Of a stretch of DNA of 24,000 nt, positions 7,107 through 10,580 are shown one piece after another. Source of the stretch: Rhodoferax ferrireducens. GTDB lineage: Bacteria; Pseudomonadota; Gammaproteobacteria; Burkholderiales; Burkholderiaceae_C. The DNA lies in contig NZ_QEII01000240.1 of NCBI RefSeq assembly GCF_003347515.1, forward strand, positions 74,065-98,064, given 5' to 3'. The notes under the pieces are model-generated. The model searched no databases and was not told where the DNA came from. It was given only the letters and a program-made list of their open reading frames with translations. The translations under genes and the position numbers were made by a program. The number at the start of each line of letters is the position of its first letter. Within the stretch, counting starts at the first letter, position 1.

Positions 7107-8450
7107 TCAGTCCTTGGCGGTTCGATAAACATCGGGAACGGCCGCGCCGTTCGCCAGACCATTTGTCACGGCCCCGGTCTGGCGTTTTGCCTGGGGCTCC
7201 TGCCTGATGTAGACAGTCCCAGTAAAGCTCGACACGGGGGTCTCCTCACCGCCAGATTCCACTCGCGCAACGTCGACTCTGTACATGCCTATTCGATGAC
7301 TGCGCATGAGCTCGGTTGCCCGGGCAACAAGGTTCTCGCCAGCCCGTATCCCGACCTGAAACGTGATGTGGGCGTCGATGCCCATCGCCAATGCACCGTG
7401 TGAATTGGAGGCCAGGCCGAATGCGGTGTCTGCCAAGGAAAAAATCGCACCCCCATGACAGCCACCATTGAAGTTCATATGTCGGGCATCAACGGTCATG
7501 CGCACCACTGCACTCCCTGGCCCGCCTTCGGTCACAGAAATTCCCAACGTTGAACATATCCCATCTCGTTGTGCCAAAGACGACAGGTGCGCCAACCAAC
7601 GCTCGGCATCTGGGCTCTGGGTATCGGAGGAGCCCGACATTTGCGTGGCTTTATTGGTATTTGTCGTGAGCCGACGACCAGTACCAACTACGGCCGCATG
7701 TTCTTCAATCGCAGCAACGAGCTCGGAAACTCCCTTCGATTCCGCTCCGCTCACGACCATCACCTTGGGTATCCATGCACCGTTCGTGGCCGCTCGGCGC
7801 AGCGTCAACATCTCTCGCATGTCACGAGCCGTCTCTTCGGCCAGTGGCAGGTCGCCCTTGCTAACCGCGAGCAAATCTGCAATCTCGAGGATGCCCGCCT
7901 TGATTGCCTGCACGTCATCCCCCAGTCCCGGAGGACAAACAACTACGCGGGTGTCCGCCAGTGAGGTAATGGCGGTTTCAGACTGACCGGCACCAACGGT
8001 CTCCACGATCACTCTGTCGAATCCCGCCGCATCAAAGCAGTCGACCGCAGCACGTGCCGTACGAGACAGGCCACCCAGTTGACCACGGGCTGAAAGCGAG
8101 CGTATGAAGCAGTTCGGGTGGGCGCCATGTTCCCCCATCCGGATTCGGTCGCCCAGCACAGCGCCGCCGCTGACCGGACTCGATGGGTCGACCGCAATCA
8201 CGGCCACGCGCAACTTGCGGGCAAGCCAAATACCCATCAAGGCATTGACCAGGGTAGATTTGCCACCACCCGGCACGCCTGTGACGCCAACCACGAGCGC
8301 ACGACCGGCGTGCGAGGACAGGAGTTCAGTGACCTCCTGGCTACCTGGCGCGCCATCGTCAAGACAGGTCAACACACGCGCGATCGCCCGACGCTCACCC
8401 GACAGCACGCGGGCAAGCAGTGCCTGACGGCTTGTTTCTGACGACAGCAT
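7107..8450 (-). CDS. meaB: Fusion protein: MeaB/ArgK-type G3E GTPase (B12-mutase chaperone) N-terminal domain plus PaaI-type hotdog acyl-CoA thioesterase C-terminal domain
   Basis: ORF 7107..8504. The ATG at 8450 overlaps the mutase stop by one base (TGATG).

GTPase part (about 7689-8450): P-loop GVPGGGKS (8256-8279), DPSSPVSGGAVLGDRIRM, VETVGAGQSE and a G4-like SKGD (7851-7862).

The linker is Thr/Ser/Asn-rich (about 7605-7688).

Thioesterase part (about 7206-7604): MTVDARHMNFNGGCHGGAIFSLADTAFGLA, close to E. coli PaaI as I remember it. Confidence 0.8.
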   Translation of the reverse strand: MLSSETSRQALLARVLSGERRAIARVLTCLDDGAPGSQEVTELLSSHAGRALVVGVTGVPGGGKSTLVNALMGIWLARKLRVAVIAVDPSSPVSGGAVLGDRIRMGEHGAHPNCFIRSLSARGQLGGLSRTARAAVDCFDAAGFDRVIVETVGAGQSETAITSLADTRVVVCPPGLGDDVQAIKAGILEIADLLAVSKGDLPLAEETARDMREMLTLRRAATNGAWIPKVMVVSGAESKGVSELVAAIEEHAAVVGTGRRLTTNTNKATQMSGSSDTQSPDAERWLAHLSSLAQRDGICSTLGISVTEGGPGSAVVRMTVDARHMNFNGGCHGGAIFSLADTAFGLASNSHGALAMGIDAHITFQVGIRAGENLVARATELMRSHRIGMYRVDVARVESGGEETPVSSFTGTVYIRQEPQAKRQTGAVTNGLANGAAVPDVYRTAKD

Positions 8451-10138
8451 CAGACCACCGTCAAGGGTTGGCCAAAACCAAGATCTCGACGCAGGCGTGT
8501 GCAAATTTCTTCGTGTGTTAGCCCCGCTCGTGCGCCATCAACCACGGCACCGAACACATTGCCTGACGAATTATCGACCACACGCGAGATGTGGTCGAGC
8601 GCTTTGTCGACTTCAGCGACGGAGCGCCCCTTCTTCCAGGTCGCAAAATCGTCCAAATGCCCCTGCATTACGGCCGGATCAGGGCGTTCAATGAAGGGGC
8701 GCGCACTGGCGTCCTCCTCGGTCTGAAACGCGTTGACGCCTACAACAAGCTGTTCGCCCGACTCGATGCGCCGTTGGGCGCGAAGGGCTGACGCGCCGAT
8801 CATTCGTTGAATCAGTCCCGATTCGACGGCCTTGTACATTCCGCCGGCGTCATCGACCATCTTGATGATGGACCGGATCTTTTCTTCCATTTGGTCCGTC
8901 AAGGCTTCCACGTAAAACGATCCCCCGAGCGGATCAATCACATCCGTCAGGTGGGCTTCTTCGCGAAGGACGTTTTGTGTCGCGACCGCAATGCGCGCAC
9001 CGAACTCGCTGGGGCATGCCAACGCCTCATCGTAGGCATCCGTGTGCAATGACTGGAGTCCTCCGAAGATTCCAGCCATCGCCTGAACGGTGACACGGGC
9101 AATGTTATTGAGCGGCTGTTGCCGCGTCAGGTCAACCCCTGAAGTCTGTCCGTGGAATTTAAAGCGGGATGACCTCGGGTCCTTGGCACCGAGTCGCTCG
9201 CGAGTAATCTGGGACCAAATGCGTCGCCCAGCACGAAATTTGGCGATCTCCTCAAAAAGGCTCAGCGAGATATCGAAAAAGAAGGTGAAGCGCGGCAAGA
9301 AATCGTCAGGATCCATACCACGAGCGATGCAGTCTTCGGCATTCTGAATAGCAGTACACAGCGTAAAGGCCATCGCCTCGGCCGGCGTCGCGCCTGCCTG
9401 CTGCATATGTTGACCGACCACCGACATCGGATTCCAGCGGGGAACATATTGCTTGCAATACGCGATGTGATCGAGCAATACGCGACGCGATCCAGGCAGC
9501 GAAAGCCGGTAGAACATGTGGTTGGCGACAAAATGCGAGATGTAGTCACTCTGGTTTGAAGTGCCAGTGATTGATCGCCAGTCGGTGCCACGCCGTTCGG
9601 CCGCAATCAGCATGAAGGCCAAAAGAGTGAATGGCGACGGGTCGTTCAGTGCACACGAGACTTCTCCGACGTCGACCCCTTGAAGGCTGCGCTGCATGTG
9701 GTCGACGTTGTTGATCACGACCCCACACGTTCCGAGCAGTTCCTTATCGACCGAGCTCATGTCATAGCCGCGATACACGGAATTGCAGGGAATGAGGGAA
9801 ACAGCCGTCGCACCGCCCTCCATCAGGCCCAATAGACGCGCGTTGTAGTCTGCCGGTGTGCCGAGCCCGACCAGTTGCCGCTGCGTCCAGGTGCGACCTC
9901 GGTACATCGTCGCATAGATGCCACGCGTGTAGTCGGGCTGGCCAGGGTAGCTCAGCGGATCATCGCCGCCGTACCGCGCCCAGTCGCAGGGGGTGTAAAG
10001 CGGTTTGATCGGTATCCCCGACACGTTTTCGAGAGGACGCTCCGCCGGAATCGACTCACGGTATTCGGTTTCCCACGCGGTGTAAGAGGGGGTCGATTCA
10101 AGACCTGTGGTGATCGACGGTTCAATTGGCTTGTCCAT
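8450..10138 (-). CDS. Coenzyme B12-dependent acyl-CoA mutase, large (substrate-binding TIM-barrel) subunit; divergent member of the methylmalonyl-CoA mutase family
   Basis: ORF 8450..10186. I prefer the ATG at 10138 (MDKPIEP), which has AAGGAAA upstream and sits 1 nt after the small-subunit stop. Family motifs are [55 protein letters not shown] and [15 protein letters not shown]. Confidence 0.85.
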
Positions 10139-10139
10139 T

Positions 10140-10580
10140 TCAATTTCCTTTACCAAGCAAGGCGGCACCCTCAATTCGAGCCTCACGTGCGTAGTCGCGA
10201 ATGCGCGCCGTGATTTCGTCCATCGTGCTGCCAGGATGGAATACCTGCCGTACGCCGCTCTTAATTAACTGGACTTCCTCGTTGTCCGGCACGATGCCGC
10301 CAACGATGACGCGCACATTACCCAGGCCGGCCTCCCGTAGCGCCTTGATCAGCTTGGGAACGATCAGATGATCGGTTGCCAGAGAGGAGATGCCAATCAC
10401 ATCCACATCCTCCTCGAGCGTCGTTTTCACGACGGTCTCAATGCTCTGCCAGGGAGGGGTATAGATCACCTCCATTCCGGCGTCGCGGCAGGCAGCGGCA
10501 ACAATGCGGCTGCCGCGGTCGTGGCCATCCAGCCCAATCTTTGTCACCAGCACCTTCGGTTTAAAGTCCTGTGGAGTCAT
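10140..10580 (-). CDS. Acyl-CoA mutase small subunit, B12-binding domain
   Basis: 146 aa. The canonical cobalamin-binding DxHxxG is present (GLDGHDRGS), followed by GISSL and VIVGGIVP, as in IcmB/HcmB-type small subunits. Confidence 0.85.

Follow-up and report, generated by a model that had tools for sequence, protein, structure and literature searches.

The window, a stretch of 24,000 nucleotides from Rhodoferax ferrireducens, carries on its minus strand an operon that encodes a TetR/AcrR-family regulator, the two subunits of a B12-dependent acyl-CoA mutase, a MeaB chaperone fused to a thioesterase, an AMP-forming acyl-CoA ligase and a Liv-type ABC importer (Table 1). It is flanked by a copper monooxygenase island, which further comprises an aldehyde dehydrogenase, a GMC oxidoreductase, a second ligase and OmpW. 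The initial annotation had placed a split mutase at 8450-10580, and both its coordinates and its genes are right: the large subunit matches Pfam MM_CoA_mutase (E = 5.6e-157) and the small subunit matches Pfam B12-binding (E = 9e-23) as well as TIGR00640 (134 bits, for a cutoff of 57).

Table 1. Features of the operon and of the neighboring island, in window coordinates.
Feature	Position	Strand	Details
Liv-type ABC importer (whole)	1..5092	-	five components
Importer, second ATPase	from 740, past the window start	-	Pfam ABC_tran
Importer, periplasmic binding protein	902-2263	-	Pfam Peripla_BP_6
Importer, permeases	2273-3349 and 3361-4290	-	Pfam BPD_transp_2 twice
Importer, ATPase	4310-5092	-	Liv-type set, Pfam ABC_tran and BCA_ABC_TP_C
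AMP-forming acyl-CoA ligase	5110..7056	-	648 aa; Pfam AMP-binding, E = 3e-63; putative pivalate-CoA ligase
MeaB G-protein chaperone fused to PaaI-type hotdog thioesterase	7107..8450	-	447 aa
Mutase large subunit	8450-10138	-	562 aa; substrate-binding barrel, probably PCM-type
Mutase small subunit	10140-10580	-	146 aa; cobalamin-binding
TetR/AcrR-family regulator	10591..11250	-	first gene of the operon; Pfam TetR_N and TetR_C_24
Palindrome CAAACAATTGTTTG	11273..11286		perfect, 14 bp; lies 23 bp before the start codon of the TetR gene; likely TetR operator
PQQ alcohol dehydrogenase	12421-14589
pmoCAB-pmoD	14611-18146		copper membrane monooxygenase

The small subunit contains the annotated DxHxxG motif as D18-G-H20-D-R-G23 and, as in pivalyl-CoA mutase (PCM), is a separate cobalamin-binding subunit. 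The ATG of the large subunit lies one base past the small-subunit stop codon; its open reading frame is extendable to a GTG at 10186, and homologs as well as the identical NCBI protein WP_114969207.1 begin MDKP. The motifs that had been quoted for this subunit, including VGQHM, are all found in the sequence, and its fold is settled by 36% identity to the solved structure of 2-hydroxyisobutyryl-CoA mutase (HCM). The following gene, whose ATG overlaps the large-subunit stop by one base (TGATG), encodes a protein identical to WP_114969206.1, with matches to Pfam MeaB (E = 1e-80) and 4HBT, to TIGR00750 (279 bits) and, below the family cutoff, to PaaD (92.6 bits).

The residues that line the active site of the large subunit were compared in phmmer alignments to PDB chains and in a MAFFT alignment of 207 sequences, which reproduced every substitution listed in the earlier hand alignment. 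Leu89 is aligned with Tyr89 of methylmalonyl-CoA mutase (MCM) and Ile90 of HCM; Ile116, in the strand SLIPCNSV, with Asp117 of HCM in STDFDMPT (the MCM strand being SVAFDLPT); Asn206 with Arg207 of MCM and Gln208 of HCM; and Gln243-His244 with Tyr243-His244. The alignment further contains a one-residue insertion (GTS-N-QSDY compared to GTI-QNDIL). These are not chance changes in a single sequence, since 90% or more of the 201 family members share each of the substitutions at Leu89, in SLIPCNSV, at Asn206 and at Gln243-His244. Taken together, Leu89, Ile116, Asn206 and the Gln243 that replaces Tyr would form an apolar pocket in place of the carboxylate- and hydroxyl-binding residues of MCM and HCM, as would suit a substrate that bears three methyl groups but lacks a polar substituent.

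Several features of the family at large are retained. The TIM barrel, the motifs HxQTSG, SLHT and DP-GGS, the DxHxxG cobalamin domain and the MeaB chaperone are all common to the window and to MCM (1REQ from P. shermanii, 2XIJ from human, 6OXC from M. tuberculosis) and IcmF (4XC6). The best match of solved structure is HcmA of the HcmAB system (E = 3e-101; Aquincola tertiaricarbonis, PDB 4R3U, and Methylibium petroleiphilum PM1), which is likewise split into a large and a small subunit and has an associated MeaB and CoA ligase. This match, together with the generic database labels of the window protein ('methylmalonyl-CoA mutase' or 'acyl-CoA mutase family protein'), could be taken to mean that the enzyme has one of the other known activities and isomerizes methylmalonyl-, isobutyryl-, ethylmalonyl- or 2-hydroxyisobutyryl-CoA. 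We consider this very improbable. Identity to MCM is 33-36%, Leu and Asn occupy the columns of Tyr89 and Arg207 (P. shermanii numbering), and the score of 418.7 bits against the NCBIfam MCM equivalog NF006944 stays far below the cutoff of 876. Identity to HCM is 35-36%, Ile90, Asp117 and Gln208 are replaced by Leu89, Ile116 and Asn206, the F-D of the strand by P-C, and Tyr243 by Gln; in RCM the Asp117 position is occupied by Val. The specificity pair of isobutyryl-CoA mutase (ICM) is Phe/Gln, from which the window protein also differs by having Leu and Asn in the two columns; here the pair is that of the literature and the columns those of the MCM and HCM alignment, and IcmF was compared by score (184.6 bits against NF045497, for a cutoff of 1500). 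The claim that the pattern is neither Tyr/Arg nor Ile/Asp/Gln is therefore borne out by alignment, and the claim that it is not Phe/Gln stands with respect to the literature pair.

The same residues are, however, found in a protein that already carries a name. Over residues 22-561, the large subunit is 65% identical to Xaut_5043 from plasmid pXAUT01 of Xanthobacter autotrophicus Py2, whose UniProt entry (A7IQE5) reads 'RecName: Pivalyl-CoA mutase large subunit', and the small subunit is 67% identical to Xaut_5044, the 'Pivalyl-CoA mutase small subunit' of UniRef. Where the window protein has Leu (MCM 89), Asn (MCM 207), Ile (HCM 117) and Gln (MCM 243), the residues of Xaut_5043 are Leu, Asn, Leu and Gln, within the motifs RQLIGL, HFIANHQF, SLLPCCSGF and VVGQHMQQ, so that RQL-GL, the SL(I/L) strand and VGQHMQQ constitute a common signature; all 24 of the family-specific positions agree between the two proteins. 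Both have only 33-36% identity to HCM and MCM, and in a neighbor-joining tree that covered the window family together with HCM and MCM, they fall into one clade, apart from HCM and MCM, in 100 of 100 bootstrap replicates. A Streptomyces plasmid mutase considered as IcmA reference was rejected for its MCM-like Tyr/Arg pair, and a Paraburkholderia match considered as IcmF reference for being a different split mutase. A homolog with 76% identity that shares both motifs and operon (P0100) is also named 'pivalyl-CoA mutase large subunit' by JGI.

We take Xaut_5043/5044 to be the experimentally characterized PCM, based on the UniProt name; the X. autotrophicus Py2 enzyme was reportedly characterized by Kitanishi and colleagues in 2015 (J Biol Chem 290:20466). 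The Leu/Asn/apolar/Gln set presumably corresponds to the specificity-determining residues of PCM in the literature; a full-text search, whose reach ended before the primary PCM papers, returned no description of PCM residues. The initial annotation had read the residue combination as unfamiliar and as pointing to a new substrate class that matches none of the characterized specificities; PCM was among its own comparators, but the residues of PCM were not known to it. This reading could draw on a residue set that differs from MCM and HCM in the alignments and from the Phe/Gln of ICM, and on the few residues of the pocket strand that deviate from Xaut_5043. It is nevertheless hardly tenable, given that the set recurs in a UniProt-named pivalyl-CoA mutase with the same family-specific positions, the same clade and a collinear operon. 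As far as sequence comparison can tell, the residue set is the conserved signature of an already characterized PCM and the window enzyme an ordinary ortholog. We thus assign 8450-10580, with a probability of roughly 0.85, to a two-subunit, AdoCbl-dependent pivalyl-CoA/isovaleryl-CoA mutase within a self-contained operon for the utilization of pivalate (2,2-dimethylpropionate). The earlier proposal of branched or tertiary (neopentane- or tert-butyl-type) acyl-CoA substrates was right in kind and is compatible with PCM; the argument it drew from the monooxygenase is weak.

The operon context points in the same direction. Synteny was followed by tblastn across loci and through the pre-called genes on the contigs of relatives. 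The products of ten genes run collinear with Xaut_5045-5035, with identities of 34-67%, in the order TetR, small subunit, large subunit, MeaB, thioesterase, ligase and ABC importer: the regulator is 43% identical to Xaut_5045, the ligase 51% (over its full length) to Xaut_5039, and the importer components 56-66% to Xaut_5038-5035. MeaB and thioesterase form one 447-residue protein in the window, whereas in Xanthobacter they are separate genes (52% identity to Xaut_5042 and 34% to Xaut_5041, respectively), and Xanthobacter has an additional PaaK-like ligase, Xaut_5040. The arrangement recurs in loci L081, L082 and L086, which also have the MeaB-thioesterase fusion and the gene order of the importer, and in further loci; the ligase takes the same place after MeaB in these three as well as in L005, L007, L009, L039 and L072, and in most related loci the TetR gene immediately precedes that of the small subunit. 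Jacoby and colleagues reportedly described, in 2022 (Environ Microbiol), a pivalate-induced cluster in the betaproteobacterium Thauera humireducens PIV-1 that combines a pivalate-CoA ligase with a two-subunit B12 mutase and a chaperone; by this description, its gene content matches that of the window and of many Burkholderiales loci.

Upstream of the regulator, the palindrome CAAACAATTGTTTG has its sole match in the window, for 0.07 expected by chance. Its core, AAACAnTnGTTT, occurs at exactly one site in 29 of 88 loci and as two overlapping matches in a thirtieth, and about 27 of these sites directly precede the TetR gene in a mutase locus. TetR probably represses the operon at this palindrome until the substrate is present.

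The sequences themselves show homology, signature residues, clade, synteny and a conserved palindrome. The substrate is assigned here by transfer from Xaut_5043/5044, and we infer what the ligase and the transporter do and how the operon is regulated. In the pathway that would result, the Liv-type ABC transporter would import pivalate and the AMP-forming ligase would convert it to pivalyl-CoA, in which the mutase would then move the thioester carbon off the quaternary carbon and onto a methyl carbon. For this, the small subunit would hold the cofactor base-off/His-on via His20 of the DxHxxG motif and the large subunit would provide the substrate barrel; homolysis of the Co-C bond would yield a 5'-deoxyadenosyl radical that takes a hydrogen from a methyl group, after which the -C(=O)SCoA group would undergo a 1,2-shift and the hydrogen would be given back. 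The product, isovaleryl-CoA, would enter the ordinary leucine/isovalerate pathway, encoded elsewhere. MeaB would load and repair the cofactor with GTP, and the fused hotdog thioesterase may clear dead-end CoA esters; the probable TetR repression would be lifted by the substrate.

The 65% identity to the characterized enzyme falls short of near-identity. In the pocket strand, I116, N119, V121 and Y122 of the window protein correspond to L, C, G and F in Xanthobacter (SLIPCNSVY compared to SLLPCCSGF), and M208 corresponds to Q (ANHMF compared to ANHQF); some shift in substrate range is possible from these differences. The family is found in very wide taxa, including Burkholderiales, Actinomycetota, Arenicellales, Xanthobacteraceae, SAR324, Nitrospira and Rokubacteria, a spread broader than expected for a substrate of xenobiotic appearance, and because of this spread the natural substrate range may extend beyond pivalate.

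The monooxygenase island lies within about 1.2 kb of the TetR gene and was proposed early on to be linked to the mutase. The two would be joined in a hydrocarbon route in which monooxygenase, PQQ alcohol dehydrogenase and aldehyde dehydrogenase oxidize a quaternary-carbon alkane such as neopentane to pivalate, which then passes through pivalyl-CoA to isovaleryl-CoA; in this Rhodoferax/Polaromonas lineage, the PCM operon would have been recruited beside the copper monooxygenase for quaternary-carbon hydrocarbons (for example neopentane, or neo-alkane and iso-octane fragments) via pivalate. The adjacency itself is real in two strains, the other being Polaromonas sp. AER18D-145 (L072), and the X. 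autotrophicus operon likewise stands beside hydrocarbon genes on pXAUT01, which are, however, those of alkene/epoxide coenzyme M metabolism rather than of a copper monooxygenase. Against the route, PCM genes are absent, within the available sequence, from all 60 metagenomic loci with a related monooxygenase, including three with 87-89% PmoB identity and 10 kb of downstream sequence (L090, L092, L111), and conversely no monooxygenase lies close to the PCM relatives with 86-87% identity (L001, L086, L088); the adjacency is thus confined to the window strain and one Polaromonas genome among these monooxygenase loci and the mutase relatives with examined flanks. Also, the junction in the window contains the remains of an insertion sequence along with a truncated thioesterase gene, and that in L072 about 3 kb of extra genes, two of which resemble CopC and CopD by eye, which together indicates a secondary juxtaposition of operon and island. 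Since the operon has its own importer, the acid would seem to come from outside the cell. We therefore regard the hydrocarbon route, and the recruitment it implies, as unlikely; the functional part of the proposed link is weak, its recurrence failing in the 60 monooxygenase loci. If true, it would for the first time connect a copper monooxygenase genetically to the catabolism of quaternary-carbon alkanes.

A new substrate class of B12 mutase would have mattered greatly, and the evidence does not support it. The value of the pivalyl-CoA mutase assignment lies mainly in annotation: thousands of entries that carry the PCM signature under the names 'methylmalonyl-CoA mutase' or 'acyl-CoA mutase family protein' could be renamed, and the proteins with this signature sit in a conserved, putative pivalate-utilization operon. 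That the operon borders an alkane-type copper monooxygenase in two strains provides a small lead, and the breadth of taxa across which the family extends suggests a widespread ability to degrade quaternary-carbon acids.

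On sequence grounds, the split B12-dependent mutase of the window belongs as an ortholog to a previously named enzyme family, pivalyl-CoA mutase (PCM), and is not an enzyme of unrecognised specificity that would found a new substrate class, as the initial annotation had proposed. The motifs quoted for that proposal are all present, and phmmer against solved structures and MAFFT on 207 sequences both return the hand alignment behind it: Leu89 stands at the position of Tyr89 in methylmalonyl-CoA mutase (MCM) and Ile90 in 2-hydroxyisobutyryl-CoA mutase (HCM); Ile116, within SLIPCNSV, at that of Asp117 in HCM (strand STDFDMPT; SVAFDLPT in MCM); Asn206 at that of Arg207 in MCM and Gln208 in HCM; and Gln243-His244 at that of the reference Tyr-His (243-244). 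The computed alignment places neither Tyr/Arg nor Phe/Gln nor Ile/Asp at the specificity positions, and the chain carries an extra one-residue insertion (GTS-N-QSDY). These signature residues are in kind those of Xaut_5043, the large subunit encoded on plasmid pXAUT01 of Xanthobacter autotrophicus Py2 (motifs RQLIGL, SLLPCCSGF, HFIANHQF and VVGQHMQQ), which a tblastn search of plasmids aligns at 65% identity over residues 22-561, and which an exact-sequence look-up equates with UniProt A7IQE5, by name a pivalyl-CoA mutase large subunit; its partner Xaut_5044 bears the database name "Pivalyl-CoA mutase small subunit". The family of Xaut_5043 has presumably been characterised biochemically, and the activity of the Xanthobacter mutase has reportedly been measured.

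Twenty-four alignment columns qualify as family-specific positions, being conserved at 95% or more among family members and occupied without variation by another residue in two HCM and three MCM sequences; every one of them is matched by both the window protein and Xaut_5043. In a neighbour-joining tree over 508 columns, these two proteins and 18 diverse relatives form a clade (100/100 bootstrap) that excludes HCM and MCM, with which its members share only 33-36% identity; the window protein also scores below the NCBI curated thresholds for MCM (419 vs 876 bits) and for the isobutyryl-CoA mutase IcmF (185 vs 1500 bits). One homolog, 76% identical and with the same motifs and operon, is named "pivalyl-CoA mutase large subunit" by JGI. 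The window gene is not alone in this residue set: across 201 family sequences ANH is invariant, P-C and GQH occur in every motif variant listed, RQL is missing from a single, N-terminally truncated sequence, and no signature column is conserved below 90%. Homologs of the window protein number in the thousands in a large protein collection (the best 120 all at least 74% identical), and a scan in which a single genome represents each species returns more than 570 matching stretches, of which the best 80, at 61-93% identity, come from Burkholderiales, Prescottella, Arenicellales, Xanthobacteraceae, Rokubacteria, SAR324, Nitrospira and others. Leu89, Ile116, Asn206 and Gln243 make up a less polar set than the residues by which MCM and HCM bind carboxylate and hydroxyl groups, which fits a methyl-only substrate; the initial guess of an acyl-CoA derived from tert-butyl compounds or neopentane was right in kind.

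A different split B12 mutase is encoded on plasmid PPGUF2_p1 of Paraburkholderia largidicola (AP028202.1; positions 78-2164 of the retrieved locus), with a CoA transferase, an enoyl-CoA hydratase, a MeaB-like protein and a TRAP transporter as operon partners. It retains Tyr/Arg (RQY, VAR), has AGAHM in place of GYHM and FGVVCGGSS in place of the family core HxQTSG, and shares about 41-43% identity with MCM and HCM alike; this enzyme could be more unusual than the window mutase.

Features of the window, with database matches and identity to the Xanthobacter autotrophicus Py2 counterparts
Feature	Position	Strand	Match or motif	Identity
Liv-type ABC importer, five components	1-5092	minus		56-66%
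AMP-forming ligase, 648 aa	5110-7056	minus		51%
MeaB GTPase fused to PaaI-type hotdog thioesterase, 447 aa	7107-8450	minus		MeaB 52%, thioesterase 34%
Acyl-CoA mutase large subunit, 562 aa	8450-10138	minus	Pfam MM_CoA_mutase, E=5.6e-157	65%
Cobalamin-binding protein (mutase small subunit), 146 aa	10140-10580	minus	Pfam B12-binding, E=9e-23; D18-x-H20-x-x-G23	67%
TetR regulator	10591-11250	minus		43%
Perfect palindrome	11273-11286
Stretch between the modules	about 11300-12420
PQQ/cytochrome c alcohol dehydrogenase	12421-14589	minus
PmoD homolog	14611-15222	minus	PDB 6CPD, E=4e-19
pmoB-like	15222-16520	minus
pmoA-like	16474-17226	minus	PDB 1YEW_B, E=1e-62
pmoC-like	17367-18146	minus
Aldehyde dehydrogenase	18311-19828	plus
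GMC oxidoreductase	19895-21535	plus
Second AMP-ligase	21629-23269	plus
OmpW	23344-24000	plus

The mutase operon is tightly packed on one strand, and NCBI lists its proteins, with identical sequences, under the consecutive accessions WP_114969205 to WP_114969208 (label Rhodoferax ferrireducens). A single base separates the small-subunit stop codon from the large-subunit ATG, and the MeaB ATG shares one base with the large-subunit stop codon; these junctions indicate translational coupling. From end to end the operon follows the gene order of Xaut_5045-5035, except that MeaB (Xaut_5042) and the thioesterase (Xaut_5041) are separate adjacent genes in Xanthobacter, whereas the window encodes them as one protein, a fusion that recurs in many Burkholderiales PCM operons (as in the related loci L081, L082 and L086). 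The core of TetR, small subunit, large subunit and MeaB(thioesterase) is found in nearly all of 80 genomic loci, followed in a subset of them by the ligase and importer. The thioesterase, whose role is putative, is always kept with the PCM mutase. The palindrome, CAAACAATTGTTTG, sits 23 bp ahead of the TetR start codon, and in about 27 related loci its core, AAACAnTnGTTT, recurs directly upstream of the TetR gene; the palindrome is the probable TetR operator, through which the regulator would act on the operon. In the Xanthobacter plasmid (positions 1-7300 of the retrieved locus), the PCM operon directly adjoins epoxide/coenzyme M pathway genes, including 2-hydroxypropyl-CoM lyase and associated dehydrogenases, a second case of such an operon beside a hydrocarbon-oxidation island.

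From 12421 to its end the window holds a complete copper membrane monooxygenase island. Operons of this type have reportedly been described in alkane-utilising Rhodoferax and Polaromonas; the module is conserved as one block across several metagenomic contigs (73-98% identity), with PmoD after pmoB in almost all of 60 related loci. The two modules might be linked functionally, with a neo-alkane oxidised to pivalate and onward to isovaleryl-CoA, and they do adjoin each other in one further genome only, Polaromonas sp. AER18D-145; such a link is conceivable but unsupported, and is considered quite improbable. PCM genes are absent from the sequence examined of the 60 monooxygenase loci, including 10 kb downstream in each of three loci at 87-89% PmoB identity, and no monooxygenase is found near PCM relatives of 86-87% identity. 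The junctions differ as well: in Polaromonas about 3 kb of extra genes (two resembling CopC and CopD, as judged by eye) and an intact hotdog thioesterase gene (8204-8674 of that locus; also intact in L086) separate the modules, where the window has a truncated copy of this thioesterase gene (Pfam 4HBT) and a short reading frame resembling a transposase fragment, without Pfam match. The window lineage appears to have lost a junction stretch present in Polaromonas, and from these observations together the juxtaposition looks secondary.

The most likely pathway runs from pivalate, through the products of the mutase operon, into leucine catabolism. The ABC transporter would import pivalate and the ligase would convert it to pivalyl-CoA, which the adenosylcobalamin mutase would isomerise to isovaleryl-CoA: with His20 from the small subunit as ligand to the cobalt, the 5'-deoxyadenosyl radical would take a hydrogen from a methyl group, the thioester group would undergo a 1,2-shift, and the hydrogen would be given back. 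A pivalate-induced cluster of this kind has reportedly been described in Thauera humireducens PIV-1. In Rhodoferax, the isovaleryl-CoA would then enter leucine catabolism through genes located elsewhere.
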